DNA of 64,000 nucleotides from Escherichia coli (lineage in GTDB: Bacteria; Pseudomonadota; Gammaproteobacteria; Enterobacterales; Enterobacteriaceae), in the NCBI RefSeq assembly GCF_024298765.1, contig NZ_CP101211.1. One strand, given 5' to 3'. Of this stretch, positions 1 to 21,373 are shown piece after piece. Both the position numbers and the translations under genes were made by a program. Each line of letters begins with the position of its first letter. Position 1 is the stretch's first letter. The notes under the pieces were generated by a model. It saw only the letters and a list, made by a program, of their open reading frames with translations, was not told the origin of the DNA and did no database searches.

Positions 1-75
1 CTCCGTCTTCAATTTGCTACAATGGCGGCGGCAGCCACAGCCTCCGCCCCAACCCATACAGAAGGTGAACACTGA
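1..75 (+). CDS. mrx: 3' end of mrx (MFS protein of mph(A) operon), cut by the window edge
   Basis: Bases 1-1418 are the reverse complement of 13931-15348 (identical ORF translations on opposite strands); mrx ends at 15274 in the full copy, which maps to 75 here. Confidence 0.6.
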   Translation, partial: LRLQFATMAAAATASAPTHTEGEH

Positions 76-659
76 TGCCCCGCCCCAAGCTCAAGTCCGA
101 TGACGAGGTACTCGAGGCCGCCACCGTAGTGCTGAAGCGTTGCGGTCCCATAGAGTTCACGCTCAGCGGAGTAGCAAAGGAGGTGGGGCTCTCCCGCGCA
201 GCGTTAATCCAGCGCTTCACCAACCGCGATACGCTGCTGGTGAGGATGATGGAGCGCGGCGTCGAGCAGGTGCGGCATTACCTGAATGCGATACCGATAG
301 GCGCAGGGCCGCAAGGGCTCTGGGAATTTTTGCAGGTGCTCGTTCGGAGCATGAACACTCGCAACGACTTCTCGGTGAACTATCTCATCTCCTGGTACGA
401 GCTCCAGGTGCCGGAGCTACGCACGCTTGCGATCCAGCGGAACCGCGCGGTGGTGGAGGGGATCCGCAAGCGACTGCCCCCAGGTGCTCCTGCGGCAGCT
501 GAGTTGCTCCTGCACTCGGTCATCGCTGGCGCGACGATGCAGTGGGCCGTCGATCCGGATGGTGAGCTAGCTGATCATGTGCTGGCTCAGATCGCTGCCA
601 TCCTGTGTTTAATGTTTCCCGAACACGACGATTTCCAACTCCTCCAGGCACATGCGTAA
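75..659 (+). CDS. mphR(A): TetR-family macrolide-responsive repressor MphR(A)
   Basis: 194-aa ORF MPRPKLKSDDEVLEAATVVLKRCG..., recognised as MphR(A); identical to the copy at 14690-15274. Confidence 0.9.
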   Translation: MPRPKLKSDDEVLEAATVVLKRCGPIEFTLSGVAKEVGLSRAALIQRFTNRDTLLVRMMERGVEQVRHYLNAIPIGAGPQGLWEFLQVLVRSMNTRNDFSVNYLISWYELQVPELRTLAIQRNRAVVEGIRKRLPPGAPAAAELLLHSVIAGATMQWAVDPDGELADHVLAQIAAILCLMFPEHDDFQLLQAHA

Positions 660-1097
660 ACGGAGGTGTGCAGAGTCCCTGCGGCAGGCGACGAACACGA
701 CCGTCGTCGATTAGTACCGGTACGGTCGGTGGTATCGAAGTCTTGATCACCACTCAGGTCTACGGCTTACAAATGGTGACCATCCCGATACTTGCGTCAG
801 AGCACCGGGCCGATTCTTTGACAGTGAATCACTCCCGTAAGGTTGTGCCGGTGTGGGTGTCCCGGGTCGAGACGATACTCCGCCAATGCGCCCAGCAAAC
901 AACCTGGCCATCGCAGGTGGTGGGGAGCGGTGTGGCGGATGAGTTGGACAAGTTGGTGTAGCAGCACGAGCACGGCGAGATAACATCGCAGGAGTTCGAC
1001 ATGCTCAAGAGACAGCTGATTGCGAATCGCGATGCAGATTCATAACCCGATTGCGGGTTGGCTTCACTCCACCATCACCGAGCAGACTAGCACGGCG

Positions 1098-1418
1098 GGC
1101 TCTGTTGCAAAGATTGGCGGCAGTCAGAGGTAGGCTGTCGCTCTGCGCCGATCAGGCGGCTGCTGCGAAATGGTGGTTGAGCATGCCCATGGCCTCCGTC
1201 AGCGCCGAGGGCCCAATGCCAAAAGCTCTCTCCACAAGGCGCACCTCGCCCCTGATGCCGGGCTGCAGGCACCAGGGGCGAGCCTGTCCTTTGCGCAGGG
1301 CTCGCATGACTTCGAATCCCTTGATCGTGGCATAGGCCGTGGGGATCGATTTGAAACCGCGCACCGGCTTGATCAGTATCTTGAGCTTTCCGTGATCGGC
1401 CTCGATCACGTTATTGAG
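1098..1418 (-). mobile_element. IS6100 3' fragment (about 321 bp), truncated by IS26
   Basis: IS6100 terminal repeat GGCTCTGTTGCAAA at 1098 and IS6100 tnpA C-terminal codons on the minus strand; the identity with the full copy (13372-14251) stops at the IS26 end at 1419. Confidence 0.85.
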
Positions 1419-2200
1419 GGCACTGTTGCAAATAGTCGGTGGTGATAAACTTATCATCCCCTTTTGCTGATGGAGCTGCACATGAACCCATTCAAAGGCC
1501 GGCATTTTCAGCGTGACATCATTCTGTGGGCCGTACGCTGGTACTGCAAATACGGCATCAGTTACCGTGAGCTGCAGGAGATGCTGGCTGAACGCGGAGT
1601 GAATGTCGATCACTCCACGATTTACCGCTGGGTTCAGCGTTATGCGCCTGAAATGGAAAAACGGCTGCGCTGGTACTGGCGTAACCCTTCCGATCTTTGC
1701 CCGTGGCACATGGATGAAACCTACGTGAAGGTCAATGGCCGCTGGGCGTATCTGTACCGGGCCGTCGACAGCCGGGGCCGCACTGTCGATTTTTATCTCT
1801 CCTCCCGTCGTAACAGCAAAGCTGCATACCGGTTTCTGGGTAAAATCCTCAACAACGTGAAGAAGTGGCAGATCCCGCGATTCATCAACACGGATAAAGC
1901 GCCCGCCTATGGTCGCGCGCTTGCTCTGCTCAAACGCGAAGGCCGGTGCCCGTCTGACGTTGAACACCGACAGATTAAGTACCGGAACAACGTGATTGAA
2001 TGCGATCATGGCAAACTGAAACGGATAATCGGCGCCACGCTGGGATTTAAATCCATGAAGACGGCTTACGCCACCATCAAAGGTATTGAGGTGATGCGTG
2101 CACTACGCAAAGGCCAGGCCTCAGCATTTTATTATGGTGATCCCCTGGGCGAAATGCGCCTGGTAAGCAGAGTTTTTGAAATGTAAGGCCTTTGAATAAG
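1419..2200 (+). mobile_element. IS26, lacking the last 38 bp including its right terminal repeat
   Basis: Left repeat GGCACTGTTGCAAA at 1419 and intact tnpA; sequence diverges from the other IS26 copies after TTTGAATAAG at 2200 instead of continuing ACAAAAGGCTGCC...TTTGCAACAGTGCC. Confidence 0.85.
1464..2186 (+). CDS. tnpA: IS26 transposase (supplied ORF has a 6-aa N-terminal extension)
   Basis: Translation [31 protein letters not shown]... matches IS26 Tnp26. Confidence 0.95.
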   Translation: MLMELHMNPFKGRHFQRDIILWAVRWYCKYGISYRELQEMLAERGVNVDHSTIYRWVQRYAPEMEKRLRWYWRNPSDLCPWHMDETYVKVNGRWAYLYRAVDSRGRTVDFYLSSRRNSKAAYRFLGKILNNVKKWQIPRFINTDKAPAYGRALALLKREGRCPSDVEHRQIKYRNNVIECDHGKLKRIIGATLGFKSMKTAYATIKGIEVMRALRKGQASAFYYGDPLGEMRLVSRVFEM

Positions 2201-2226
2201 GAGAGCATGAAAAACCTCGGGGCAGC
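2201..2226 (+). repeat. Left terminal inverted repeat of the ISKra4-family element
   Basis: About 21 of 26 positions match the reverse complement of 5026-5051. Confidence 0.7.
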
Positions 2227-2292
2227 CATCGAATGATGCCATCTACAGGGGTTAAAATAACCACCATCATTTCATAACAATACCTGCTGACT

Positions 2293-2883
2293 ATGAAGAT
2301 CTACGTCATCAAAATAGCAGTTCATGGAGTCAGTCCGATGGTCTGGCGTCGGCTGAGAATTGCTGCCGACACGTCACTGGCCGCGCTTCACTTCATTTTC
2401 CAGATAGTGCAGGGCTGGGGGGACGACCATCTCCATCAATTTCACATTTATGGCAAAGATTACGGTATCTCCTACGAAGGAGGCATCGGTTTTGTCGATA
2501 ATCCGTTCCGGGTCGTGATTGATGATTTTGCTTTTGATGCTGGCGATCGCTTTACCTATGAATACAATTTCTTTGAGCACTGGCTTCATGACATTCGTGT
2601 TGAGGCCATTTATGAAAACTCTACGCTGAAAGCGCCGTTTTGTATAAGCGGCCATGGTATGCCCGGAGCCACAGCTGCGGATGAGTTCGATAAAACCCTG
2701 GCGTTTCTTGAAGCTATCGTTAATGCGGATGATGAAACAACGGTCGGCGAGATCCGCCCTTTTGCTGACGACCTGGATGCTGTCAGGTTCAACCGCCACA
2801 AAATCAACCGGCAACTGAGCAGGCTCGACCTTGCATCTCCGGTACTGGAGCCTGAAGTTATCTGGCTGGGCCGTCGTCGCTGA
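2293..2883 (+). CDS. Passenger protein of the IS (pRiA4b ORF-3-like), function unknown
   Basis: 196-aa ORF inside the IS boundaries, upstream of the recombinase and transposase genes; family name from memory only. Confidence 0.6.
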   Translation: MKIYVIKIAVHGVSPMVWRRLRIAADTSLAALHFIFQIVQGWGDDHLHQFHIYGKDYGISYEGGIGFVDNPFRVVIDDFAFDAGDRFTYEYNFFEHWLHDIRVEAIYENSTLKAPFCISGHGMPGATAADEFDKTLAFLEAIVNADDETTVGEIRPFADDLDAVRFNRHKINRQLSRLDLASPVLEPEVIWLGRRR

Positions 2884-3019
2884 CTGATGTCTATAAAGGT
2901 ATACGTTTTCAGCATGCCTCTCAGATCCCCGAAAAAATGTCTATAAACCTCCCTAAATCAGTGTTTATGGATTATTCTTTAAATCTCTATGATGTTTAAA
3001 GACCTTCCGGAGGTTTTGC

Positions 3020-3592
3020 GTGCAATATGCCTACATCAGGGTAAGCTCGGCCGATCAGAATACGGCCCGTCAGGAAGAGGCATTGTCAAAGGCGGGTTTT
3101 CAGCCTGATAAAATTTGTGTTGAGCATGCCAGCGCGAAGGACACAAACCGCCCGGGGTTACAGGAACTCCTGGGGCAATTACGCCCTGGTGATACGCTTC
3201 TGGTTCATTCCATCGATCGCCTTTGCCGGAATATGTCGGATATGTGCGCTGTCACCACCCGGCTTCGTGACCAGGGCGTTACCCTTATTTTTCTGAAAGA
3301 GCAGCTGACGTTCAGCGCCGGCACAAACAATCCGATGCAGGAACTGCAGCTGCACATGATGTCGGCATTCAGCCAGTTTGAACGAGCCTTACTGAAGGAA
3401 AGGCAGGCCGACGGCATCGCCGCGAAAAAAGCACGGGGTGAAAAAACAGGGCGCCCCGGCGCCGATATCAAAAAGATCCAGGAAATTGACGCACTCAGAA
3501 GCAGAGGGGTCAGGCTCAGGATCGCCTGCGACCATGCGGGCCTTGGCGTTTCCACATATTATAAGCTTCGTCACCAGATGAACAACCAGTAG
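3020..3592 (+). CDS. Serine recombinase (resolvase/invertase family)
   Basis: N-terminus YAYIRVSSADQN with the catalytic Ser context and a C-terminal helix-turn-helix; 190 aa. Confidence 0.8.
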   Translation: MQYAYIRVSSADQNTARQEEALSKAGFQPDKICVEHASAKDTNRPGLQELLGQLRPGDTLLVHSIDRLCRNMSDMCAVTTRLRDQGVTLIFLKEQLTFSAGTNNPMQELQLHMMSAFSQFERALLKERQADGIAAKKARGEKTGRPGADIKKIQEIDALRSRGVRLRIACDHAGLGVSTYYKLRHQMNNQ

Positions 3593-3625
3593 CCGGGAGA
3601 TAGTCATCCACCACAGCAGGAGGCA

Positions 3626-5020
3626 ATGATGCAACTGACGCTCCAGATAGTCATCACCGATGAATCAGGCTCCAGTCGAACGGAGGAACTGATGACAATC
3701 CAGAAATCAGGGGAGACCCGGAACGACATCGGATTATCGGTGTCAGAATCCAAGCTGTTGCTGAATACGGTCCAGCAGTCGGTGGTCCAGCTGCAGGCAG
3801 ACGAATATACTCAACACCATATCCGGTGCCCTCACTGCCTTGCTGCGCGCAGAATCAAAGGCAAACAGAAAATACGGTACCGGACGCTGTTTGGCGTTAT
3901 TCCGGTATCCGGGCTTCGGGTGTACCGGTGCCGTTGTGAAGAGAGTGATACAAAGACAGTCAGTTTGCTCAGCGACTGGGCCGGCGATTATTCTCACCCG
4001 GCACTGAAATATATTGAAACCCGCTGGGCCTCGATGATCTCCTATGAAATGACGACTCGTCTGCTGAAAGATATTCTGCCGGTGGGCCACAGCCTGAATG
4101 CCTCAACGGTGAGGAATCATTTATGCCAGGTGGCGCAGCGTCTTGACGCTGAGGCTGAAGCTCATTCAGGTTTTCTTTCCGGCTGCCCCCGCGACTGGGG
4201 GAACCTGCCCAGGCCAGGAAAACCGCTTGTGGTGGGTATAGATGGTGGTTATGTTCGCGATCGGGATGACAAAAAGCGTAATTTTGAAATTATTGCCGGG
4301 AAGTCTTTTTCCGTTGGTGCGCCTGCTGACACCCGCCGCTTCGGTTTTGTTCAGAAGGATGACTGTCATCCGGAACGCAGGCTCATGACCCACCTTTCAG
4401 CGCAGGGAATGCAGGCCAACCAGCAGATATTTTTTCTGTCCGACGGCGCGGATAATCTCAGGGACCTCCAGTTCGGTATGTACCCTGAGTCAACGCATGT
4501 GCTGGACTGGTTTCATATCACCATGAGGCTGAAGGTGCTCATGCAATATGCCCGGGGACTGCTGGTATCAGATCCAGAGGCGGGGAGTAAAGTTCTGGCA
4601 CTGCTGGAAAGCATTAAACGATATCTCTGGCATGGCAATGTTGTCGCTGCGCTGGAACATATTGATAATTGCGTTATGTATTGCGATGACCCTGAACTCA
4701 GCTATCCTAGCCTGAAATCCCTGCAAAAACATCTGGATGAAATGTATACCTACATCCGGAATAATAAGATGATGATCCCAAACTACGGCGAAATGCGTCG
4801 GTACGGAGAGCCGGTATCAACCGCGTTTGTGGAATCCACGATCAATGAAGTGATCGCCAGACGAATGGCCAAAAAGCAGCAGATGCAGTGGAGCAGAAAA
4901 GGGGCTCATTATTTGTTACAGACCCGGACCGCCGTTTTGAATAACGAACTGCAGGATAAATTTGTCTGCTGGTATCCGGGTTTTCAAAGTGACGGGAAGG
5001 GACCAGCGATGGCAGCATAG
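3626..5020 (+). CDS. ISKra4-family DDE transposase
   Basis: 464-aa ORF with an N-terminal Cys cluster (CPHC...CRC) and a transposase-like core; sits against the right inverted repeat. Confidence 0.75.
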   Translation: MMQLTLQIVITDESGSSRTEELMTIQKSGETRNDIGLSVSESKLLLNTVQQSVVQLQADEYTQHHIRCPHCLAARRIKGKQKIRYRTLFGVIPVSGLRVYRCRCEESDTKTVSLLSDWAGDYSHPALKYIETRWASMISYEMTTRLLKDILPVGHSLNASTVRNHLCQVAQRLDAEAEAHSGFLSGCPRDWGNLPRPGKPLVVGIDGGYVRDRDDKKRNFEIIAGKSFSVGAPADTRRFGFVQKDDCHPERRLMTHLSAQGMQANQQIFFLSDGADNLRDLQFGMYPESTHVLDWFHITMRLKVLMQYARGLLVSDPEAGSKVLALLESIKRYLWHGNVVAALEHIDNCVMYCDDPELSYPSLKSLQKHLDEMYTYIRNNKMMIPNYGEMRRYGEPVSTAFVESTINEVIARRMAKKQQMQWSRKGAHYLLQTRTAVLNNELQDKFVCWYPGFQSDGKGPAMAA

Positions 5021-5025
5021 CTCAC

Positions 5026-5051
5026 GCTGCCCCAATATTTTTTATGCTCTC
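5026..5051 (-). repeat. Right terminal inverted repeat of the ISKra4-family element
   Basis: Reverse complement matches 2201-2226 at about 21 of 26 positions. Confidence 0.7.
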
Positions 5052-5481
5052 GGTCGTATGGAAGCTGGACCGCCTCGGTCGTGATCTTCGTCATCTCATT
5101 AATACAGTGCACGACCTGACCGCGAGGGGGACCGGTCTGAAAGTGCTGACCGGTCACGGGGCGACTATCGACACAACAACGGCCGCTGGCAAGCTTGTCT
5201 TCGGTATCTTTGCCGCACTGGCGGAGTTTGAGCGCGAACTGATTGCTGAAAGAACGACTGCAGGTCTGGCATCAGCAAGAGCCCGTGGGCGGAACGGCGG
5301 CCGACCTTATAAAATGACGCCAGTCAAACTGCGACTGGCAATGGCATCAATGGGACAATCAGAAACAAAGGTCAGTACGCTATGCCAGGAACTTGGGATA
5401 ACCCGGCAAACTTTGTACAGGCATATTTCCCCTGTTGGTCAACTGCGGGCGGACGGGATCAAGCTGCTCAACCGTGGATAA
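5052..5481 (+). pseudogene. tnpR: Resolvase gene fragment lacking its 5' end including the catalytic Ser region
   Basis: Reading frame begins VVWKLDRLGRD immediately after the IS right repeat; C-terminal helix-turn-helix present, N-terminal about 60 codons absent. Confidence 0.7.
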
Positions 5482-5538: not shown

Positions 5539-5552
5539 TTTGCAACAGTGCC
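5539..5552 (-). repeat. Isolated IS26-type 14-bp terminal repeat (IS6-family end remnant)
   Basis: Exact TTTGCAACAGTGCC; the adjacent inner sequence resembles but does not match IS26. Confidence 0.4.
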
Positions 5553-5802
5553 TTATAAATGGCAGCCTTATGTTTACTTGCCAAGATGGGCTACCATATG
5601 ATGTTTTATACTGAGCAATATTAATATTATCTTTAATGGAAAAATTAAGCCCACTAAGTGACCCACTGCTATATGGCTCTATTGTGAAGACGCCTGAGGG
5701 TAAAAATTTATACATGGTTGTCCCTATGTCTATTATTGCAAGGTTGACAATATTATTCGTTTTATAAATTTGAGCGTTTAAAATCACACATCAAAGCAAT
5801 TA

Positions 5803-5866
5803 GTCAGGATAAACAACAATACCCAGTGCTTCGAGAATCAGTTCTTGCTGCCAGGCTGCAATTTTG
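5803..5866 (-). pseudogene. qnrS1: qnrS1 3' fragment (last 20 codons plus stop)
   Basis: Minus-strand translation KIAAWQQELILEALGIVVYPD* continues the 5' fragment at 8397-8994 across the 8-bp duplication. Confidence 0.85.
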
Positions 5867-6686
5867 GGCACTGTTGCAAAGTTAGCGATGAGGCAGCCTT
5901 TTGTCTTATTCAAAGGCCTTACATTTCAAAAACTCTGCTTACCAGGCGCATTTCGCCCAGGGGATCACCATAATAAAATGCTGAGGCCTGGCCTTTGCGT
6001 AGTGCACGCATCACCTCAATACCTTTGATGGTGGCGTAAGCCGTCTTCATGGATTTAAATCCCAGCGTGGCGCCGATTATCCGTTTCAGTTTGCCATGAT
6101 CGCATTCAATCACGTTGTTCCGGTACTTAATCTGTCGGTGTTCAACGTCAGACGGGCACCGGCCTTCGCGTTTGAGCAGAGCAAGCGCGCGACCATAGGC
6201 GGGCGCTTTATCCGTGTTGATGAATCGCGGGATCTGCCACTTCTTCACGTTGTTGAGGATTTTACCCAGAAACCGGTATGCAGCTTTGCTGTTACGACGG
6301 GAGGAGAGATAAAAATCGACAGTGCGGCCCCGGCTGTCGACGGCCCGGTACAGATACGCCCAGCGGCCATTGACCTTCACGTAGGTTTCATCCATGTGCC
6401 ACGGGCAAAGATCGGAAGGGTTACGCCAGTACCAGCGCAGCCGTTTTTCCATTTCAGGCGCATAACGCTGAACCCAGCGGTAAATCGTGGAGTGATCGAC
6501 ATTCACTCCGCGTTCAGCCAGCATCTCCTGCAGCTCACGGTAACTGATGCCGTATTTGCAGTACCAGCGTACGGCCCACAGAATGATGTCACGCTGAAAA
6601 TGCCGGCCTTTGAATGGGTTCATGTGCAGCTCCATCAGCAAAAGGGGATGATAAGTTTATCACCACCGACTATTTGCAACAGTGCC
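5867..6686 (-). mobile_element. IS26 (820 bp, complete)
   Basis: 14-bp terminal repeats at both ends, with tnpA on the minus strand. Confidence 0.95.
5919..6641 (-). CDS. tnpA: IS26 transposase
   Basis: Identical translation to the other IS26 tnpA copies. Confidence 0.95.
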   Translation of the reverse strand: MLMELHMNPFKGRHFQRDIILWAVRWYCKYGISYRELQEMLAERGVNVDHSTIYRWVQRYAPEMEKRLRWYWRNPSDLCPWHMDETYVKVNGRWAYLYRAVDSRGRTVDFYLSSRRNSKAAYRFLGKILNNVKKWQIPRFINTDKAPAYGRALALLKREGRCPSDVEHRQIKYRNNVIECDHGKLKRIIGATLGFKSMKTAYATIKGIEVMRALRKGQASAFYYGDPLGEMRLVSRVFEM

Positions 6687-6754
6687 CGCTTAAAAATAAT
6701 AAAAGCAGACTTGACCTGATAGTTTGGCTGTGAGCAATTATGTGCTTAGTGCAT

Positions 6755-6825
6755 CTAACTTTGTTTTAGGGCGACTGCCCTGCTGCGTAACATCGTTGCT
6801 GCTCCATAACATCAAACATCGACCC
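6755..6825 (-). other. attI1 recombination site of a class 1 integron, apparently with no cassette
   Basis: 5'-conserved segment ...GTCGCCCTAAAACAAAGTTAGAT followed on the cassette strand by what I recall as the start of the qacE cassette, cut by IS26 at 6686; boundaries approximate. Confidence 0.6.
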
Positions 6826-6894
6826 ACGGCGTAACGCGCTTGCTGCTTGGATGCCCGAGGCATAGACTGTACAAAAAAACAGTCATAACAAGCC

Positions 6895-7576
6895 ATGAAA
6901 ACCGCCACTGCGCCGTTACCACCGCTGCGTTCGGTCAAGGTTCTGGACCAGTTGCGTGAGCGCATACGCTACTTGCATTACAGTTTACGAACCGAACAGG
7001 CTTATGTCCACTGGGTTCGTGCCTTCATCCGTTTCCACGGTGTGCGTCACCCGGCAACCTTGGGCAGCAGCGAAGTCGAGGCATTTCTGTCCTGGCTGGC
7101 GAACGAGCGCAAGGTTTCGGTCTCCACGCATCGTCAGGCATTGGCGGCCTTGCTGTTCTTCTACGGCAAGGTGCTGTGCACGGATCTGCCCTGGCTTCAG
7201 GAGATCGGAAGACCTCGGCCGTCGCGGCGCTTGCCGGTGGTGCTGACCCCGGATGAAGTGGTTCGCATCCTCGGTTTTCTGGAAGGCGAGCATCGTTTGT
7301 TCGCCCAGCTTCTGTATGGAACGGGCATGCGGATCAGTGAGGGTTTGCAACTGCGGGTCAAGGATCTGGATTTCGATCACGGCACGATCATCGTGCGGGA
7401 GGGCAAGGGCTCCAAGGATCGGGCCTTGATGTTACCCGAGAGCTTGGCACCCAGCCTGCGCGAGCAGCTGTCGCGTGCACGGGCATGGTGGCTGAAGGAC
7501 CAGGCCGAGGGCCGCAGCGGCGTTGCGCTTCCCGACGCCCTTGAGCGGAAGTATCCGCGCGCCGGGCATTCCTGGC
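6895..7576 (+). pseudogene. intI1: Class 1 integrase gene truncated at its 3' end by IS26 (about 227 codons kept)
   Basis: Translation [44 protein letters not shown]... matches IntI1; reading frame runs into the IS26 repeat at 7577. Confidence 0.9.
6982..7010 (-). promoter_or_regulatory. Integron cassette promoter Pc, hybrid variant (-35 TGGACA, -10 TAAACT, 17-bp spacer)
   Basis: On the cassette strand: TGGACAtaagcctgttcggttcgTAAACT inside intI1. Confidence 0.7.
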
Positions 7577-8396
7577 GGCACTGTTGCAAATAGTCGGTGG
7601 TGATAAACTTATCATCCCCTTTTGCTGATGGAGCTGCACATGAACCCATTCAAAGGCCGGCATTTTCAGCGTGACATCATTCTGTGGGCCGTACGCTGGT
7701 ACTGCAAATACGGCATCAGTTACCGTGAGCTGCAGGAGATGCTGGCTGAACGCGGAGTGAATGTCGATCACTCCACGATTTACCGCTGGGTTCAGCGTTA
7801 TGCGCCTGAAATGGAAAAACGGCTGCGCTGGTACTGGCGTAACCCTTCCGATCTTTGCCCGTGGCACATGGATGAAACCTACGTGAAGGTCAATGGCCGC
7901 TGGGCGTATCTGTACCGGGCCGTCGACAGCCGGGGCCGCACTGTCGATTTTTATCTCTCCTCCCGTCGTAACAGCAAAGCTGCATACCGGTTTCTGGGTA
8001 AAATCCTCAACAACGTGAAGAAGTGGCAGATCCCGCGATTCATCAACACGGATAAAGCGCCCGCCTATGGTCGCGCGCTTGCTCTGCTCAAACGCGAAGG
8101 CCGGTGCCCGTCTGACGTTGAACACCGACAGATTAAGTACCGGAACAACGTGATTGAATGCGATCATGGCAAACTGAAACGGATAATCGGCGCCACGCTG
8201 GGATTTAAATCCATGAAGACGGCTTACGCCACCATCAAAGGTATTGAGGTGATGCGTGCACTACGCAAAGGCCAGGCCTCAGCATTTTATTATGGTGATC
8301 CCCTGGGCGAAATGCGCCTGGTAAGCAGAGTTTTTGAAATGTAAGGCCTTTGAATAAGACAAAAGGCTGCCTCATCGCTAACTTTGCAACAGTGCC
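7577..8396 (+). mobile_element. IS26 (820 bp, complete)
   Basis: 14-bp terminal repeats at 7577 and 8383-8396. Confidence 0.95.
7622..8344 (+). CDS. tnpA: IS26 transposase
   Basis: Identical translation to the other IS26 tnpA copies. Confidence 0.95.
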   Translation: MLMELHMNPFKGRHFQRDIILWAVRWYCKYGISYRELQEMLAERGVNVDHSTIYRWVQRYAPEMEKRLRWYWRNPSDLCPWHMDETYVKVNGRWAYLYRAVDSRGRTVDFYLSSRRNSKAAYRFLGKILNNVKKWQIPRFINTDKAPAYGRALALLKREGRCPSDVEHRQIKYRNNVIECDHGKLKRIIGATLGFKSMKTAYATIKGIEVMRALRKGQASAFYYGDPLGEMRLVSRVFEM

Positions 8397-8994
8397 CAAT
8401 TTTGATACCTGATGTATCGACTTTGCGGGGATCTAAACCGTCGAGTTCGGCGTGGCATAAATTGGCACCCTGTAGGCTAAATTGCCCCCAGACATCTTCG
8501 GAAAAAACACCTCGACTTAAGTCTGACTCTTTCAGTGATGCACCCGCTAGGTTCGTTCCTATCCAGCGATTTTCAAACAACTCACATTTTTCTAAACAAA
8601 CCCTCTCCATATTGGCATAGGAAAGATTACATCCAGAAATAAATGCTGAGCAAAAGTACATACGATTACTCACTTGATGGGCAAAGTTTGTTCGGGAAAA
8701 GTTGGCACCTTTTAAATCACACGCACGGAACTCTATACCGTAGCAATTGGCATTACTGAAGTTTGCCATCGCAAGTTGGCATTGTTGGAAACTTGCATCA
8801 CGAAGATCTGCGACATCAAAGTGGCAGCCTTCGATATCACCCTGTTCAATGAACTTGCAGTTGACGAATGTCGTATCACGCAAGTTAGCACGTCGAAAGT
8901 CGCTGCGAATGAATGTGCAAGCGGTGAAGGTGAGATCACTTAAGTCTTTATGTGAAAAGTTGTGGTGCCGATATGTATGATTGTAGGTTTCCAT
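8397..8994 (-). pseudogene. qnrS1: qnrS1 5' fragment (first about 199 codons), interrupted
   Basis: METYNHTYRHHNFSHKDLSDLTFTACTFIRSDF... pentapeptide-repeat protein matching QnrS1; the supplied ORF tail is read-through into the IS26 repeat. Confidence 0.9.
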
Positions 8995-13371: not shown

Positions 13372-14251
13372 GGCTCTGTTGCAAAAATCGTGAAGCTTGA
13401 GCATGCTTGGCGGAGATTGGACGGACGGAACGATGACGGATTTCAAGTGGCGCCATTTCCAGGGTGATGTGATCCTGTGGGCGGTGCGCTGGTATTGTCG
13501 CTATCCGATCAGCTATCGCGACCTTGAGGAAATGCTGGCGGAACGCGGCATTTCGGTCGACCATACGACGATCTATCGCTGGGTCCAGTGCTACGCCCCG
13601 GAGATGGAGAAGCGGCTGCGCTGGTTCTGGCGGCGTGGCTTTGATCCGAGCTGGCGCCTGGATGAAACCTACGTCAAGGTGCGGGGCAAGTGGACCTACC
13701 TGTACCGGGCAGTCGACAAGCGGGGCGACACGATCGATTTCTACCTGTCGCCGACCCGCAGCGCCAAGGCAGCGAAGCGGTTCCTGGGCAAGGCCCTGCG
13801 AGGCCTGAAGCACTGGGAAAAGCCTGCCACGCTCAATACCGACAAAGCGCCGAGCTATGGTGCAGCGATCACCGAATTGAAGCGCGAAGGAAAGCTGGAC
13901 CGGGAGACGGCCCACCGGCAGGTGAAGTATCTCAATAACGTGATCGAGGCCGATCACGGAAAGCTCAAGATACTGATCAAGCCGGTGCGCGGTTTCAAAT
14001 CGATCCCCACGGCCTATGCCACGATCAAGGGATTCGAAGTCATGCGAGCCCTGCGCAAAGGACAGGCTCGCCCCTGGTGCCTGCAGCCCGGCATCAGGGG
14101 CGAGGTGCGCCTTGTGGAGAGAGCTTTTGGCATTGGGCCCTCGGCGCTGACGGAGGCCATGGGCATGCTCAACCACCATTTCGCAGCAGCCGCCTGATCG
14201 GCGCAGAGCGACAGCCTACCTCTGACTGCCGCCAATCTTTGCAACAGAGCC
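13372..14251 (+). mobile_element. IS6100 (880 bp, complete)
   Basis: Terminal repeats GGCTCTGTTGCAAA at 13372 and at 14238-14251. Confidence 0.9.
13397..14197 (+). CDS. tnpA: IS6100 transposase (true start may be the Met at 13433)
   Basis: ...[39 protein letters not shown]..., an IS6-family transposase. Confidence 0.9.
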   Translation: MSMLGGDWTDGTMTDFKWRHFQGDVILWAVRWYCRYPISYRDLEEMLAERGISVDHTTIYRWVQCYAPEMEKRLRWFWRRGFDPSWRLDETYVKVRGKWTYLYRAVDKRGDTIDFYLSPTRSAKAAKRFLGKALRGLKHWEKPATLNTDKAPSYGAAITELKREGKLDRETAHRQVKYLNNVIEADHGKLKILIKPVRGFKSIPTAYATIKGFEVMRALRKGQARPWCLQPGIRGEVRLVERAFGIGPSALTEAMGMLNHHFAAAA

Positions 14252-14689
14252 CGCCGTGCTAGTCTGCTCGGTGATGGTGGAGTGAAGCCAACCCGCAATC
14301 GGGTTATGAATCTGCATCGCGATTCGCAATCAGCTGTCTCTTGAGCATGTCGAACTCCTGCGATGTTATCTCGCCGTGCTCGTGCTGCTACACCAACTTG
14401 TCCAACTCATCCGCCACACCGCTCCCCACCACCTGCGATGGCCAGGTTGTTTGCTGGGCGCATTGGCGGAGTATCGTCTCGACCCGGGACACCCACACCG
14501 GCACAACCTTACGGGAGTGATTCACTGTCAAAGAATCGGCCCGGTGCTCTGACGCAAGTATCGGGATGGTCACCATTTGTAAGCCGTAGACCTGAGTGGT
14601 GATCAAGACTTCGATACCACCGACCGTACCGGTACTAATCGACGACGGTCGTGTTCGTCGCCTGCCGCAGGGACTCTGCACACCTCCGT

Positions 14690-15274
14690 TTACGCATGTG
14701 CCTGGAGGAGTTGGAAATCGTCGTGTTCGGGAAACATTAAACACAGGATGGCAGCGATCTGAGCCAGCACATGATCAGCTAGCTCACCATCCGGATCGAC
14801 GGCCCACTGCATCGTCGCGCCAGCGATGACCGAGTGCAGGAGCAACTCAGCTGCCGCAGGAGCACCTGGGGGCAGTCGCTTGCGGATCCCCTCCACCACC
14901 GCGCGGTTCCGCTGGATCGCAAGCGTGCGTAGCTCCGGCACCTGGAGCTCGTACCAGGAGATGAGATAGTTCACCGAGAAGTCGTTGCGAGTGTTCATGC
15001 TCCGAACGAGCACCTGCAAAAATTCCCAGAGCCCTTGCGGCCCTGCGCCTATCGGTATCGCATTCAGGTAATGCCGCACCTGCTCGACGCCGCGCTCCAT
15101 CATCCTCACCAGCAGCGTATCGCGGTTGGTGAAGCGCTGGATTAACGCTGCGCGGGAGAGCCCCACCTCCTTTGCTACTCCGCTGAGCGTGAACTCTATG
15201 GGACCGCAACGCTTCAGCACTACGGTGGCGGCCTCGAGTACCTCGTCATCGGACTTGAGCTTGGGGCGGGGCAT
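14690..15274 (-). CDS. mphR(A): TetR-family repressor MphR(A)
   Basis: Identical to the 75-659 copy. Confidence 0.9.
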   Translation of the reverse strand: MPRPKLKSDDEVLEAATVVLKRCGPIEFTLSGVAKEVGLSRAALIQRFTNRDTLLVRMMERGVEQVRHYLNAIPIGAGPQGLWEFLQVLVRSMNTRNDFSVNYLISWYELQVPELRTLAIQRNRAVVEGIRKRLPPGAPAAAELLLHSVIAGATMQWAVDPDGELADHVLAQIAAILCLMFPEHDDFQLLQAHA

Positions 15275-16512
15275 CAGTGTTCACCTTCTGTATGGGTTGG
15301 GGCGGAGGCTGTGGCTGCCGCCGCCATTGTAGCAAATTGAAGACGGAGCGAGAGTAGAGCCACGAGCCCCGCAAACACGGCCGATACAACGAGGCCAGGG
15401 AGCGGACCAGCAAGGTCGACAAACGCGCCGGCCGCAAGCATAACCATGGGCGAGGCTGACAGCATCACCGCCGAGACCGTGCCGAGTACCCGGCCGAGAA
15501 GTTCTGGCGGCGTGCGGTTGTAGATGGCAGCGTTGAGAATGGGAGAGACTGAGCCGGTCAGCAGTCCCACGAGCGCGCCCAACAACATCAGCACCGGCAC
15601 GCCTGGCAACTGTGAAAGCAGAAGCGAGCCCACCGCAGAGCCACAAAATGCCACCGCCAGCCAGTTCTGCGCTGATATCCGGGCGCCGACCGACGCATGA
15701 ATGGCAATGCCAAGGAGACCACCAGCCCCCATCATTGAGGAGAACAGCCCGAGCTCTGCTACTTGGCGTCCTGCATCTACAAACAGCGCAGGCATGATGA
15801 CGCTGCCGTTGGCGCCAACGATGCCCACGAAGATCATCACTATACCAAAGAGAGGGCGCAGCAGGGGTTCGCTCCAGAGAAAAGCGACGCCGGCGCGCAT
15901 GGAGAGAGTCGCCGTCGTGGTCATCGTCCGAGCGGCACGCGCGGGAAGCACCCACGCGCCGAGCAGACCTGCAAGGACGGAGCAGAACGCCGTCAGCCCG
16001 AGCGTTGGCGCAGCGCCAAGCAGGCCGATTGCGGCCCCCCCAAGGGCCGGGCCACCTAGAATCGCGACGTTCCCGATCACCGCTTTCAGTGACGAGACGC
16101 GCTCAACGGAGAGCCCGGCGACGTGGCCGAGTTTGGGCAGCTCACTGTCCTGCGCGGCCATACCGGGTGCGTCGAACGCGGCACCGAGCACCACGCAAGC
16201 GATCAGCCCAGTGTTCGAGAGGGCGCCAACGGCATCGAGCAGTGGGATGCTCGCCATGGCCACGCCGCCCACCACACCCGAGATCAATGCGACGGGCGCG
16301 CGCCCGAACCGATCGACGAGGCCACCACCAACCCACGCGCCGATGATGGTCGCGATGACGCTGCTAGCGGCCGTGGCGCCCGCCCAGGCCGCGCTCTTTG
16401 TATGAGACAGGACGAACCATGGAAGCGCGAGGGCCGCCACCGCGTTGCCGATCCGGAAGAGAAAGGTCGCCGCGAACAGCGTCGCGAGCGGGCTATATCG
16501 ACGTTCGCTCAT
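15274..16512 (-). CDS. mrx: Mrx, MFS-type membrane protein of the mph(A) operon
   Basis: 412-aa hydrophobic ORF between mph(A) and mphR(A) with overlapping stop and start codons. Confidence 0.85.
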   Translation of the reverse strand: MSERRYSPLATLFAATFLFRIGNAVAALALPWFVLSHTKSAAWAGATAASSVIATIIGAWVGGGLVDRFGRAPVALISGVVGGVAMASIPLLDAVGALSNTGLIACVVLGAAFDAPGMAAQDSELPKLGHVAGLSVERVSSLKAVIGNVAILGGPALGGAAIGLLGAAPTLGLTAFCSVLAGLLGAWVLPARAARTMTTTATLSMRAGVAFLWSEPLLRPLFGIVMIFVGIVGANGSVIMPALFVDAGRQVAELGLFSSMMGAGGLLGIAIHASVGARISAQNWLAVAFCGSAVGSLLLSQLPGVPVLMLLGALVGLLTGSVSPILNAAIYNRTPPELLGRVLGTVSAVMLSASPMVMLAAGAFVDLAGPLPGLVVSAVFAGLVALLSLRLQFATMAAAATASAPTHTEGEH

Positions 16513-17414
16513 TCCGCTGCGGCGAGCTGCGCCTTCGCCGCAGCGAGGTACTCTTCGTTACCCGAGTCGAGGGCGAAGAGTGCGTAGGTGACCGCCCCGA
16601 ACGCAAGGCGCTCCGCGATGTGGTGGGCGAGCCGCGGCCACACCCGGCCACCGGCCGCTTCATACGTGAGGAGGAGCTTCGCGAGCCCCTCTTCACCAAA
16701 GACCATAAGGTGCGCGGCCATGTCGATGGCAGGGTCATCAACGCGGGCCTCGCTCCAGTCGATCATCCCGCTGACGCGCTCCGTGTTGTCGATGAGCACA
16801 TGGCCCACGTAGAGATCGCCATGCACCACCACGGAGAAATCTGGCCACGACGAATCGTCGTCGAGCCAGCGCTGCCACCGGTGGAGGCGCTTGTCGTTCA
16901 CCACGAACTCGCGTCGGACGCGGTCAACGTCGTCGGCCACCTTCTGACGGGCCTGCGTCGGTGTACGGATGAGCATCCCCGCATCCACGGCGGCGGAAAT
17001 GGGGACGGCATGCAGGGCGGCGAGCGCGGTCGCGAAGCTCTCCGCGAAGACCTCCGAGTCCTGCGGCACGACCCAGTCGGGCGTGGACGAACCAGGCTGG
17101 ATGACCATCGCAGTCGAGTCTTCGAGCATGGGATAGGCAACGAGCTCGGCGTTGGCCACGCGCCAGTCCGGCACCGCGAACGGCAGGCGATTCTTGAGCA
17201 TTGCCAGCACCCGCGCCTCTGGTTCGACCTTCGCGCTTACCTCGGCTCGGCGCGGGATGCGCAGCACCCACCGACGTCCATCGTCGACGGTGGCGATCAC
17301 GATCCTATAGTCGAGCCCAAGCTCATTGACAGTCAGCGGGCCATGGAGCTTGAGCCCATGTCGGGCTGCAAGTGCGTACAGTTGGGAGGTATCGGCGGTC
17401 GTGACTACGGTCAT
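16509..17414 (-). CDS. mph(A): Macrolide 2'-phosphotransferase Mph(A)
   Basis: 301-aa ORF MTVVTTADTSQLYALAARHGLKLHG...HGDLYVGHVLID..., an APH-like kinase fold. Confidence 0.9.
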   Translation of the reverse strand: MTVVTTADTSQLYALAARHGLKLHGPLTVNELGLDYRIVIATVDDGRRWVLRIPRRAEVSAKVEPEARVLAMLKNRLPFAVPDWRVANAELVAYPMLEDSTAMVIQPGSSTPDWVVPQDSEVFAESFATALAALHAVPISAAVDAGMLIRTPTQARQKVADDVDRVRREFVVNDKRLHRWQRWLDDDSSWPDFSVVVHGDLYVGHVLIDNTERVSGMIDWSEARVDDPAIDMAAHLMVFGEEGLAKLLLTYEAAGGRVWPRLAHHIAERLAFGAVTYALFALDSGNEEYLAAAKAQLAAAE

Positions 17415-17446
17415 GATTCACTCCTGAGGGCTTGACGGGTTTAGCC

Positions 17447-17480
17447 ACCTAAATGTAACAGTCACGTCGGTTATATTCAA
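17447..17480 (-). promoter_or_regulatory. mph(A) promoter and MphR(A) operator region (pseudo-palindrome)
   Basis: AATATAACCGACGTGACTGTTACATT pseudo-palindrome directly upstream of mph(A); limits approximate. Confidence 0.45.
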
Positions 17481-17483
17481 TCC

Positions 17484-18303
17484 GGCACTGTTGCAAAGTT
17501 AGCGATGAGGCAGCCTTTTGTCTTATTCAAAGGCCTTACATTTCAAAAACTCTGCTTACCAGGCGCATTTCGCCCAGGGGATCACCATAATAAAATGCTG
17601 AGGCCTGGCCTTTGCGTAGTGCACGCATCACCTCAATACCTTTGATGGTGGCGTAAGCCGTCTTCATGGATTTAAATCCCAGCGTGGCGCCGATTATCCG
17701 TTTCAGTTTGCCATGATCGCATTCAATCACGTTGTTCCGGTACTTAATCTGTCGGTGTTCAACGTCAGACGGGCACCGGCCTTCGCGTTTGAGCAGAGCA
17801 AGCGCGCGACCATAGGCGGGCGCTTTATCCGTGTTGATGAATCGCGGGATCTGCCACTTCTTCACGTTGTTGAGGATTTTACCCAGAAACCGGTATGCAG
17901 CTTTGCTGTTACGACGGGAGGAGAGATAAAAATCGACAGTGCGGCCCCGGCTGTCGACGGCCCGGTACAGATACGCCCAGCGGCCATTGACCTTCACGTA
18001 GGTTTCATCCATGTGCCACGGGCAAAGATCGGAAGGGTTACGCCAGTACCAGCGCAGCCGTTTTTCCATTTCAGGCGCATAACGCTGAACCCAGCGGTAA
18101 ATCGTGGAGTGATCGACATTCACTCCGCGTTCAGCCAGCATCTCCTGCAGCTCACGGTAACTGATGCCGTATTTGCAGTACCAGCGTACGGCCCACAGAA
18201 TGATGTCACGCTGAAAATGCCGGCCTTTGAATGGGTTCATGTGCAGCTCCATCAGCAAAAGGGGATGATAAGTTTATCACCACCGACTATTTGCAACAGT
18301 GCC
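17484..18303 (-). mobile_element. IS26 (820 bp, complete)
   Basis: 14-bp terminal repeats at both ends. Confidence 0.95.
17536..18258 (-). CDS. tnpA: IS26 transposase
   Basis: Identical translation to the other IS26 tnpA copies. Confidence 0.95.
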   Translation of the reverse strand: MLMELHMNPFKGRHFQRDIILWAVRWYCKYGISYRELQEMLAERGVNVDHSTIYRWVQRYAPEMEKRLRWYWRNPSDLCPWHMDETYVKVNGRWAYLYRAVDSRGRTVDFYLSSRRNSKAAYRFLGKILNNVKKWQIPRFINTDKAPAYGRALALLKREGRCPSDVEHRQIKYRNNVIECDHGKLKRIIGATLGFKSMKTAYATIKGIEVMRALRKGQASAFYYGDPLGEMRLVSRVFEM

Positions 18304-18596
18304 AGAGCGAGGCCCATTGACGCCACAACGTAGGCGAGGCCACCTCCCAGTAGAACGGGGCGGCGCCCCAGTCGGTCCGATAGCGGTCCAAACAAGAGCT
18401 GACCGGCACCAATCATGACCAAGTACGTTGTCAGCGTAAGCTGAATTGTGCTCGCTGTCGTACCAAGCGCGTTTGGCATAAACGGCACTGCTGGCAAGTA
18501 CATGTCCATGCCGAGTGATGCCAATAAATCGAACGGTGATAACAACAACACCGTGGCGGCAAGGGAGTACCGCCAACTAAAGTTTTTTGAGCGCAC
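18304..18596 (-). pseudogene. cmlA: cmlA chloramphenicol exporter gene, only the first about 97 codons (GTG start), cut by IS26
   Basis: VRSKNFSWRYSLAATVLLLSPFDLLASLGMDMYLPAVPFMPNALG... matches the CmlA N-terminus. Confidence 0.8.
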
Positions 18597-18916
18597 GAAA
18601 CCATCTCCTTGAACAAAGGATTTGGCGGCGCTCCCGTAGAGCAAAAGGATTCATGAGAACGCCGCAACAACCGAAAAATGAAGGTTGCTGCGGCTTACTT
18701 GTCTGCGTTCTTGGAAGTGCTCATCTGCTGACTATCTCATGATTGAATTTGAATCGTAACAACTTTCAAGCAACTCTGCGAGGAGCCTTATTGTGCGCCC
18801 AACGCCGCCATAAACGGCGACAGGGTGGCGCGCCTATTGCGCATAAAATGGCGAAGCCATGCGCAACAGGCGCGGAATCTCTGGCGTCCGGTTTGATGGC
18901 TTTGTTATGCAAAGGA

Positions 18917-19369
18917 CTAGTCTTCAATGACGTGTAAACCACGGCGCTTTAAGTCCTCTAACGAATCCAACATTCCCCTTATTAATTCAACAGGATGCCC
19001 CTCCCAGTCTTCAACAACGCCAACAATTCTCAAGGGTTCGCAGGTTCTATAGGACTGTGTTGGATTACCGGGAAATTTTTTGTTCGTAAGATTCGGATCG
19101 TCTTCGAACGGTCCTGTTGGCTCAACTATGTATATGTAGCCGCGACCCTCGAGGCCAGACAGTGACATAGCAAGTTCAGCTCCCCAAACTGCTGGCTCCA
19201 TCAAGGCTGAAAAGTAGATGTGCTTAAGAATACGACCGTCCTCGAAATGAGAGATGAACCCTGTGGTTAGCAAGTCACCAATCGCCAAATTGGCTTTGGT
19301 TCCATGATAGAACGGTCCTTGCACCTGCTTGTAATTATCATGAGAGATGGGAATCCAATCTTTTACCAT
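18917..19369 (-). CDS. arr: Rifampin ADP-ribosyltransferase Arr (arr-2 or arr-3 group)
   Basis: 150 aa from MVKDWIPISHDNYKQVQGPFYHGTKANL...; the supplied ORF extends upstream into the attC. Confidence 0.8.
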   Translation of the reverse strand: MVKDWIPISHDNYKQVQGPFYHGTKANLAIGDLLTTGFISHFEDGRILKHIYFSALMEPAVWGAELAMSLSGLEGRGYIYIVEPTGPFEDDPNLTNKKFPGNPTQSYRTCEPLRIVGVVEDWEGHPVELIRGMLDSLEDLKRRGLHVIED

Positions 19370-19399
19370 TTTAAGACCCTTAATTGTTGGGATTTGGCT

Positions 19400-19479
19400 G
19401 CATAACGTCGCTATCAATCGCGGAAAAGGCGTAGTGCGCGAAGCGAACGAAGCTTTTTGCCGTCGATTGCATAGCTTTG
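19400..19479 (-). other. attC of the dfrA cassette (approximate)
   Basis: Imperfectly palindromic stretch between the dfrA stop and arr, ending in a GTTATGC core. Confidence 0.4.
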
Positions 19480-19962
19480 TTAACCCTTTTTCCAAATTTG
19501 ATAGCAATAGTTAATGTTTGAAGTAAAGTGTTGCTCAAAAACAACTTCGAAGGTATTTGGAATACTCGGGAAGAAAACATCCCCCTCTGGCTCGATGTCG
19601 ATCGTCGATAAGTGGAGCGTAGAGGCCATGGGTAATGTTTCTCGGTAAATTTCTCCGCCACCAGACACTATAACGTGACCGGTGAATTCAGCTAGCCTGT
19701 CCATGGCCTCTTCGATTGACTGAAATACAACTACATTGTCATCATTTGATGTCCAACCTGAGCGGGTAACGACCGCGTATTTCCTATTGGGGAGTGCGCC
19801 CATAGATTCAAACGTCTTGCGACCCACCAGAAGCCACTGATTGTAGGTCAATGCTTTAAAAAGTAGCTGCTCCCCTTTCGCGGACCAGGGTATGTCTGGA
19901 CCGCAACCAATCACGCCGTTTTTCGCTTTCGCAGCCATCAATGATACTTTCAAGGTTCTCAT
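19480..19962 (-). CDS. dfrA14: Trimethoprim-resistant dihydrofolate reductase DfrA (dfrA5/dfrA14 group)
   Basis: 160-aa [58 protein letters not shown]...; first cassette after attI1. The allele is a best guess from the dfrA-arr-cmlA order. Confidence 0.7.
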
Positions 19963-19967
19963 CCTGG

Positions 19968-20040
19968 GTTAACTTTGTTTTAGGGCGACTGCCCTGCTGC
20001 GTAACATCGTTGCTGCTCCATAACATCAAACATCGACCCA
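19968..20040 (-). other. attI1 (second copy) with the GTTAACC cassette junction
   Basis: Same 5'-conserved segment as 6755-6825 but joined to the dfrA cassette. Confidence 0.6.
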
Positions 20041-20108
20041 CGGCGTAACGCGCTTGCTGCTTGGATGCCCGAGGCATAGACTGTACAAAAAAACAGTCAT
20101 AACAAGCC

Positions 20109-20553
20109 ATGAAAACCGCCACTGCGCCGTTACCACCGCTGCGTTCGGTCAAGGTTCTGGACCAGTTGCGTGAGCGCATACGCTACTTGCATTACAGTTT
20201 ACGAACCGAACAGGCTTATGTCCACTGGGTTCGTGCCTTCATCCGTTTCCACGGTGTGCGTCACCCGGCAACCTTGGGCAGCAGCGAAGTCGAGGCATTT
20301 CTGTCCTGGCTGGCGAACGAGCGCAAGGTTTCGGTCTCCACGCATCGTCAGGCATTGGCGGCCTTGCTGTTCTTCTACGGCAAGGTGCTGTGCACGGATC
20401 TGCCCTGGCTTCAGGAGATCGGAAGACCTCGGCCGTCGCGGCGCTTGCCGGTGGTGCTGACCCCGGATGAAGTGGTTCGCATCCTCGGTTTTCTGGAAGG
20501 CGAGCATCGTTTGTTCGCCCAGCTTCTGTATGGAACGGGCATGCGGATCAGTG
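20109..20553 (+). pseudogene. intI1: intI1 truncated after about 148 codons by IS26
   Basis: Same N-terminus as the 6895 copy; reading frame enters the IS26 repeat at 20554. Confidence 0.9.
20196..20224 (-). promoter_or_regulatory. Pc cassette promoter, hybrid variant (TGGACA / TAAACT)
   Basis: Identical to 6982-7010; drives dfrA-arr. Confidence 0.7.
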
Positions 20554-21373
20554 GGCACTGTTGCAAAGTTAGCGATGAGGCAGCCTTTTGTCTTATTCAA
20601 AGGCCTTACATTTCAAAAACTCTGCTTACCAGGCGCATTTCGCCCAGGGGATCACCATAATAAAATGCTGAGGCCTGGCCTTTGCGTAGTGCACGCATCA
20701 CCTCAATACCTTTGATGGTGGCGTAAGCCGTCTTCATGGATTTAAATCCCAGCGTGGCGCCGATTATCCGTTTCAGTTTGCCATGATCGCATTCAATCAC
20801 GTTGTTCCGGTACTTAATCTGTCGGTGTTCAACGTCAGACGGGCACCGGCCTTCGCGTTTGAGCAGAGCAAGCGCGCGACCATAGGCGGGCGCTTTATCC
20901 GTGTTGATGAATCGCGGGATCTGCCACTTCTTCACGTTGTTGAGGATTTTACCCAGAAACCGGTATGCAGCTTTGCTGTTACGACGGGAGGAGAGATAAA
21001 AATCGACAGTGCGGCCCCGGCTGTCGACGGCCCGGTACAGATACGCCCAGCGGCCATTGACCTTCACGTAGGTTTCATCCATGTGCCACGGGCAAAGATC
21101 GGAAGGGTTACGCCAGTACCAGCGCAGCCGTTTTTCCATTTCAGGCGCATAACGCTGAACCCAGCGGTAAATCGTGGAGTGATCGACATTCACTCCGCGT
21201 TCAGCCAGCATCTCCTGCAGCTCACGGTAACTGATGCCGTATTTGCAGTACCAGCGTACGGCCCACAGAATGATGTCACGCTGAAAATGCCGGCCTTTGA
21301 ATGGGTTCATGTGCAGCTCCATCAGCAAAAGGGGATGATAAGTTTATCACCACCGACTATTTGCAACAGTGCC
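20554..21373 (-). mobile_element. IS26 (820 bp, complete); right edge of the resistance region
   Basis: 14-bp terminal repeats at both ends. Confidence 0.95.
20606..21328 (-). CDS. tnpA: IS26 transposase
   Basis: Identical translation to the other IS26 tnpA copies. Confidence 0.95.

Follow-up and report, generated by a model that had tools for sequence, protein, structure and literature searches.

The 64,000-nucleotide stretch of Escherichia coli DNA analysed here (contig NZ_CP101211.1; hereafter the window) contains a fragment of a class 1 integron that, in our reading, is inactive and free of gene cassettes, is carried as a passenger between two inverted copies of IS26, was inserted as a block into qnrS1 and most likely came to be empty through the loss of its cassettes. 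We give this overall explanation a probability of roughly 0.8, the origin of the empty state being its least certain part.

Architecture of the integron fragment

The interval between the two IS26, positions 6687 to 7576 of the window, is 890 bp long and has the same coordinates as in a preliminary description of this DNA. Followed along the cassette (minus) strand, it consists of the 5' part of intI1 (encoded on the opposite strand), Pc, P2, attI1 and a 72-nt stub of the 3'-conserved segment (3'-CS), after which IS26 begins. The sequence on this strand reads ...GCCCTAAAACAAAG/TTAGATGCACTAAGCACATAATTGC...TTTTTAAGCG, where the slash marks the attI1 crossover and IS26 comes next.

The attI1 site (6753..6814, minus strand) has the DR2, DR1, L and R boxes and the core GTTAGAT, and is identical to that of the annotated integron 5'-CS; its sub-sites are named here after the established description of attI1. 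The crossover, G/TT, lies between positions 6759 and 6758. Beyond it are the first 72 nt of the 3'-CS (6687..6758, minus strand), that is, the 5' untranslated start of the qacE cassette, which match p123 exactly; IS26 cuts them off 36 bp short of the expected qacEdelta1 start. The P2 region (6866..6891, minus strand) has a 14-bp spacer and lacks the GGG insertion, which we presume, from general knowledge of the class 1 5'-CS, to be the inactive form; overlapping it, upstream of intI1, is a LexA-box-like sequence, CTGTACAAAAAAACAG (6867-6882). A promoter scan and a pattern search both identify Pc (6982..7010, minus strand) as the variant PcH1 (TGGACA-N17-TAAACT), directed leftwards through attI1 to the left IS26.

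The truncated intI1 (6895..7576, plus strand) was recognised by its open reading frame, its length and its match to an NCBIfam model. From its start to the edge of the right IS26 it measures 682 nt, or 227 codons plus 1 nt, so that the truncation at codon 227 reported in the preliminary description is borne out. The reading frame continues into IS26, gaining five residues (RHCCK) before a stop at 7593, and the integron integrase equivalog of NCBIfam is matched with 540 bits over model positions 1-228 of 337. The fragment's entire 5'-CS (818 nt) matches that of annotated integrons without a difference. Statements of identity on the integron parts rest on 100% matches, and chance was therefore set aside as an explanation for them.

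In having an intI1, here truncated, that adjoins attI1 and holds Pc within it, the fragment has the make-up of a class 1 integron 5'-CS. It is not a functional platform, its integrase being without the C-terminal catalytic region, and no complete intI1 was found when all intI1 copies in the window were checked. The qacEdelta1-sul1 pair of clinical class 1 integrons is missing downstream, where 72 nt of 3'-CS are all that remains, and a search of the whole window for the 5' end of qacEdelta1 did not find it.

We also observed a promoter-like site (6673-6700, plus strand) that spans the junction of IS26 and the 3'-CS, with a -35 of TTTGCA within the IS26 end, a 16-nt spacer and a -10 of AATAAT in the stub. 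It is aimed through attI1 at intI1, and is a match to consensus only.

The 72 nt past attI1 begin the 3'-CS

The 72 nt that follow the crossover are identical to a stretch of the annotated IncF plasmid p123 (NZ_CP023378) lying directly 3' of the aadA5 attC (p123 locus 5011-5082), which stops 36 bp before the qacEdelta1 ATG. Because the same p123 stretch spans the distance from the aadA5 attC to 36 bp before qacEdelta1, we identify the 72 nt as the start of the 3'-CS. An exact-pattern scan covering one genome per species also found the attI1/3'-CS junction in four complete cassette-free integrons, from Extensimonas, Nitrotoga, Microbacterium and an actinomycete MAG, each of which runs on into qacE or qacEdelta1. 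As in integrons of the In0 type, the junction AAACAAAG/TTAGATGC is identical in these four cassette-free loci and in the p123 3'-CS start. The four complete integrons differ from the window by 1 base in 818 nt; all are PcW, while the window is PcH1.

On a rival reading, IS26 cut into an ordinary resistance cassette and the 69-72 bp past attI1 are what is left of its 5' end, in which case the remnant would not be cassette-free. We give this practically no credence, as the 72 nt are 100% identical to annotated integron sequence that separates the last attC from the start codon of qacEdelta1, and the same 72 nt lead into qacE or qacEdelta1 at the four complete loci; no support for a resistance cassette start was found, and p123 and the four loci contradict it, so we rejected it. 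The preliminary description had likewise held that the sequence past attI1 is the beginning of the 3'-CS, a view that would have fallen had the 69 bp matched the 5' end of a resistance cassette; instead they belong to the qacE/3'-CS region. Its statement that IS26 cuts the 3'-CS 69 bp in is right as to the cut and wrong as to the length, which is 72 nt from the crossover, a trivial difference. Sequence comparison thus confirms the window fragment as a cassette-free (In0-like) piece of a class 1 integron.

When chimeric queries (601 nt and 132 nt) are run against PLSDB, joined pieces across short cassettes outrank single-piece matches, and dfrA and aadB arrays dominate the results. As a separate observation, the integron of Candidatus Nitrotoga sp. 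M5 (NZ_CAKMNW010000088.1) is a cassette-free class 1 integron with PcW and, downstream, a full-length qacE (110 aa). Carrying qacE and not qacEdelta1, it has a pre-clinical-type arrangement, in the genome of an environmental nitrite oxidiser.

The fragment lies between inverted IS26 in qnrS1

The left IS26 (820 bp; 5867..6686, minus strand; tnp26 ATG at 6623) has 14-bp terminal repeats at both ends, and the right IS26 (820 bp; 7577..8396, plus strand) has its tnp26 ATG at 7640. Both are full length and they are identical over 820 bp; tnp26 is an open reading frame for a 240-aa transposase, and the element is annotated as IS26 in matching records. The two are inverted relative to each other, with both IRL (transposase-start) ends facing the integron fragment, and the whole unit of IS26, stub and IS26 occupies 2,530 bp (5867-8396). 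IS26 pseudo-compound transposons such as Tn4352 likewise have two IS26 bracketing a passenger, but theirs are in direct orientation and move via a translocatable unit or a single-IS cointegrate (PMC7986276). In the window the left copy is on the minus and the right on the plus strand, which sets the unit outside that class, and because its IS26 are inverted the translocatable-unit or single-IS route is closed to it.

The unit interrupts qnrS1; the preliminary description mentions neither this insertion, with its flanking repeat, nor the inversion of the two IS26, nor how widespread the module is. Flanking the unit are two identical copies of the 8-bp sequence CAATTTTG, at 5859..5866 on the left and 8397..8404 on the right, of which the uninterrupted comparator qnrS1 has a single copy. 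To the right lies the 5' part of the gene, codons 1 to about 199 (8397..8994, minus strand; an open reading frame matching positions 1-200 of 218 in the QnrS model), and to the left its 3' part, the last codons and the stop (5800..5866, minus strand), with a translation ending ...AWQQELILEALGIVVYPD before the stop. The open reading frame that remains is a 234-aa read-through fusion of QnrS1(1-199) with IS26. Deleting the unit and one copy of CAATTTTG in silico restores a qnrS1 of 657 nt and 218 aa, and this empty site is found in two related plasmids, p142_A-OXA181 and pXJW9B277-HI2-N, as an exact match with 300 nt on each side (600 nt); the closely related pXJW9B277-HI2-N, leaving the insertion aside, follows the window colinearly for 4.8 kb rightwards. 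The qnrS1::IS26 junction is absent from PLSDB, from complete E. coli genomes and, by exact look-up of the 234-aa fusion, from the gene catalogue.

A solitary 14-bp TTTGCAACAGTGCC, the IS26 terminal repeat sequence, stands without an IS26 body at 5539-5552. It is about 250 bp downstream of the qnrS1 stop, and the colinearity with pXJW9B277-HI2-N breaks nearby, at about 5519.

Since the filled and empty sites differ by the unit plus one copy of the 8-bp repeat, the comparison indicates that the 2,530-bp unit probably entered qnrS1 as one block, with an IS26-type 8-bp duplication. This interpretation rests on the one repeat-flanked copy: an 8-bp target duplication was sought in 14 other sampled copies of the unit, and none had one. 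There are two other ways in which the arrangement in qnrS1 could have come about. A lone IS26 might have entered qnrS1 first, generating the 8-bp repeat, and later events of IS26-targeted or homologous recombination might then have brought in the integron fragment and the second IS26. Such a sequence is encouraged by the strong preference of IS26 for reacting with a resident IS26, and by signs that the module's two IS26 recombine independently elsewhere, where its 8-bp flanks recur on either side and reverse-complemented. We nevertheless think it decidedly unlikely. Reasoning from published work (PMC7986276, PMC4471558), targeted conservative addition yields direct IS26, not an inverted pair, while recombination across inverted copies does no more than invert the DNA that they enclose and offers no way to set a second outer end against the duplicated 8 bp; moreover, neither PLSDB nor the complete E. 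coli genomes hold a lone IS26 at this position in qnrS1.

The other way is an artefact, the module having been placed in qnrS1 by misassembly across many IS26 repeats. The region would lend itself to such an error, with five full-length IS26 and one 3'-truncated IS26 within 21 kb, and the qnrS1 junction occurs in no other record or gene catalogue. Yet a chimeric join at IS26 would not yield a precise 8-bp duplication with perfect colinearity on both sides, and the module itself is present in many complete plasmids. On the strength of the duplication, the colinear flanks and the module's presence in complete plasmids we rejected assembly error, which we hold to be very improbable.

A likely route for the block insertion

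For insertion of the unit as a block, the simplest and most likely route would have Tnp26 act on the outer ends of both IS26. A cointegrate in which the module is present twice would follow by copy-in transposition, to be resolved by homologous recombination between the two copies. We prefer this outer-end route because neither conservative addition nor inversion yields an inverted pair abutting a direct 8-bp repeat.

There are published precedents. Tn2000 consists of a truncated class 1 integron between IS26 of opposite orientation, with target duplications flanking it (PMC6340991, PMC3575428, PMC10656743), and He et al. proposed that an IS pair can be mobilised when both of its outer ends are cleaved (PMC4471558). 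According to a review of the IS6 family, functional compound transposons of the IS6 type invariably have their IS in direct repeat, and those with an inverted pair would get no further than the cointegrate; its argument covers only the single-IS route (PMC7986276). The window unit has the features of the Tn2000 type: two intact, inverted IS26 around an integron fragment, an 8-bp outer duplication and an identifiable empty site. It resembles Tn2000 itself (IS26, truncated In53 and IS26, on plasmid pNLT1) in its integron fragment, its inverted IS26 and its flanking duplications; going by the descriptions, the two are set apart by the long resistance cassette array and part of the 3'-CS in Tn2000, whereas the window unit has no cassette array and no resistance. 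The repeat-flanked copy with its empty site would be a clean natural example of two inverted IS26 moving together as a block. Tn6023 may also have inverted IS26, and no argument here rests on it.

A second remnant of separate arrival

The window holds a second integron remnant, bounded by IS26 (17484..21373, minus strand), in the order IS26, truncated cmlA, arr-2, dfrA14, attI1, PcH1, intI1 codons 1-148 and IS26. It was identified by its identity to annotated pXJW9B277-HI2-N, which is exact over 3,890 bp. Its intI1 runs from 20109 to 20553 (445 nt, or 148 codons plus 1 nt), and its two IS26 are in direct orientation, unlike the pair around the first remnant. The account of this remnant in the preliminary description, as cut at codon 148 of intI1 and carrying dfrA-arr-cmlA, is therefore accurate, and the hybrid Pc that it attributed to both remnants is indeed TGGACA-N17-TAAACT in each. 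The comparison of Pc and attI1 between the two copies that it proposed finds them identical, there being no differences over the shared 5'-CS.

Since the shared 5'-CS is without differences, it cannot discriminate between origins, and the argument turns on junctions and comparator plasmids. The first remnant is found alone in many plasmids, and pXJW9B277-HI2-N has the second remnant exactly and lacks the first. As IS26 cut points, contents and distributions all differ, the comparison supports a separate arrival of the first remnant, and the preliminary description's proposal of independent origins agrees with these differing junctions and contents and with the occurrence of each remnant apart from the other.

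Other rearrangements were observed nearby. An exact inverted duplication of 1,418 bp with 0 mismatches links window positions 1-1418 and 13931-15348, on the mphR(A) side of the mph(A) module, and may continue past the window start. The IS26-mph(A) block at 13931-18303 is inverted relative to pXJW9B277-HI2-N. The IS26 copy at 1419-2200 diverges from the other copies from about position 782 and is missing the far-end terminal repeat, its 3' end having been replaced or cut short; this form recurs in the comparator plasmid.

Distribution and variants of the unit

The module of IS26, stub and IS26 is already known, being established and widely circulating in enterobacterial resistance plasmids. Other plasmids, NZ_CP019282, NZ_AP019678, NZ_CP024822 and CP101353 among them, have the 2,530-bp unit at 100% identity, and most sampled copies are 100% identical over the whole unit. 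With a 161-nt probe reaching from IS26 through the 72 nt into attI1, coverage was found in 114 PLSDB records, whose hosts are Escherichia, Salmonella, Klebsiella and Shigella. Of 5,426 complete E. coli genomes, 56 cover the probe as well, in one case on a chromosome. Sampled hosts of the unit are IncF, IncX1, IncI, IncN-hybrid and IncHI2 plasmids, in which it often adjoins fosA3, blaCTX-M, blaTEM or pemIK modules.

In contrast to the window copy, the 14 other sampled copies have different flanks and no 8-bp direct repeat, and the qnrS1 location is found in the window only. The outer 8-bp flanks of the unit recur in varied pairings and as reverse complements (CTATTTTT/AAAAATAG, GCCTTTAC/GTAAAGGC, CGTCGCGC/GCGCGACG and CGAGTGGG/CCCACTCG). 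These recurring flanks indicate that the core stayed constant while IS26-level recombination and inversion probably took place repeatedly around it. Given 14 copies without a duplication, and 8-bp flanks in mixed combinations, the unit's two IS26 mostly act separately outside the window copy. The block insertion into qnrS1 is the unusual point of this copy, and a minor addition with published precedent.

A variant of the unit, 2,860 bp long, occurs in the E. coli chromosome NZ_CP104629.1 (locus 1828-4687), with about 330 bp extra between the left IS26 and the stub, annotated as a partial IS6-family transposase. The same variant is in NZ_CP020547, NZ_CP012141, NZ_MW025966, NZ_MW025960, NZ_CP102856 and NZ_CP163043; one copy is chromosomal.

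Origin of the empty state

How the integron came to be empty admits two explanations, of which we favour, as somewhat the better bet though unproven, the loss of cassettes from a PcH1 array such as dfrA17-aadA5. The ancestor would have been a PcH1 integron in an IncF context, already cut by IS26 at intI1 codon 227 and carrying, for example, a dfrA17-aadA5 array. Two events, in either order, would then have produced the present fragment: integrase-mediated cassette loss, and an IS26 adjacent deletion of sul1 and qacEdelta1 that would end 36 bp before the qacEdelta1 start. Both p123 and p142_A-OXA181 (NZ_CP048338) have the same intI1/IS26 junction, an identical 818-nt PcH1 5'-CS and dfrA17-aadA5 cassettes, and the outer-left IS26 flank AGGACTATTTTT, beside pemIK, is common to p123 and to p13P484A-2, a plasmid with the empty unit. 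The IS26-bounded dfrA17-aadA5 integrons of IncF plasmids have the same inverted IS26 arrangement as the window unit, but p123 and p142_A-OXA181 retain their cassettes, and p123 also qacEdelta1 and sul1, where the window unit has none of these.

The fragment could instead descend from an In0-type integron that was never occupied, so that there would have been no cassettes to lose. The attI of In0 on pVS1 is described as unoccupied (PMC5567636), and in In0 of this Pseudomonas plasmid, as in other In0-type integrons, the attI1 crossover is likewise joined to the qacE/3'-CS start with no cassette between. At the attI1/3'-CS junction, the window and the four complete cassette-free integrons show no difference, and over 818 nt they are 1 base apart; PcW and PcH1 themselves differ by one base. 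The intermediate predicted if the cassettes were lost after the deletion, IS26 followed by the 72 nt and the aadA5 attC, has no single-piece match in PLSDB. A query of IS26 and the 72 nt was covered in 146 PLSDB records, against the 114 with attI1, the excess being ambiguous, since the search also joins nearby non-adjacent pieces. We consider descent from a never-occupied integron to be possible but rather unlikely. PcW is the variant in In0 of pVS1 (PMC5567636) and in all four complete examples, and these integrons also have a complete intI1 and either qacE or qacEdelta1, whereas the window has PcH1, 3'-CS of only 72 nt and intI1 cut at codon 227. In addition, the intI1/IS26 junction and the pemIK-side flank are common to cassette-bearing PcH1 integrons of IncF plasmids, and the shared junction and flank point to a common IS26-bounded ancestor that held, or exchanged, cassettes.

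Discussion

With the last 110 residues of IntI1 missing, the module is predicted to be unable to capture or excise cassettes by itself; judging from the truncation point, the majority of the catalytic residues, the tyrosine among them, would lie in the missing region. The fragment encodes no resistance and is, as far as its sequence tells, a passive passenger and a functional relic. In principle, its intact attI1 and Pc could receive and express a cassette if IntI1 came from elsewhere.

A more speculative idea, which we rate as improbable, is that the stub might serve IS26 as a two-way promoter cassette, with Pc reading into the left tnp26 and the intI1 promoter into the right. The intI1 promoter, which bears the LexA box, is directed rightwards through the truncated intI1 to the right tnp26. 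No convincing terminator was found by scanning between either promoter and its tnp26, the Pc path having no terminator-like site and the intI1 path one chance-level hairpin. If read-through does raise Tnp26, possibly in an SOS-inducible manner, it would explain both the wide spread of an otherwise useless module and its movement as a block despite inverted IS26.

The value of the finding is mainly practical. The interrupted qnrS1 has lost about 19 C-terminal residues, yet the QnrS model is matched over 200 of 218 positions, and resistance-gene callers may thus report qnrS1 although the truncated protein is probably non-functional. Surveys that use intI1 as a marker are affected too. Stubs of this kind have two thirds of intI1, from its 5' end, together with an attI1 and a Pc that look to be in working order, but no cassettes, qacEdelta1 or sul1, and depending on the position of the primers or reads they would score as positive for class 1 integrons while contributing neither resistance nor recombination activity.
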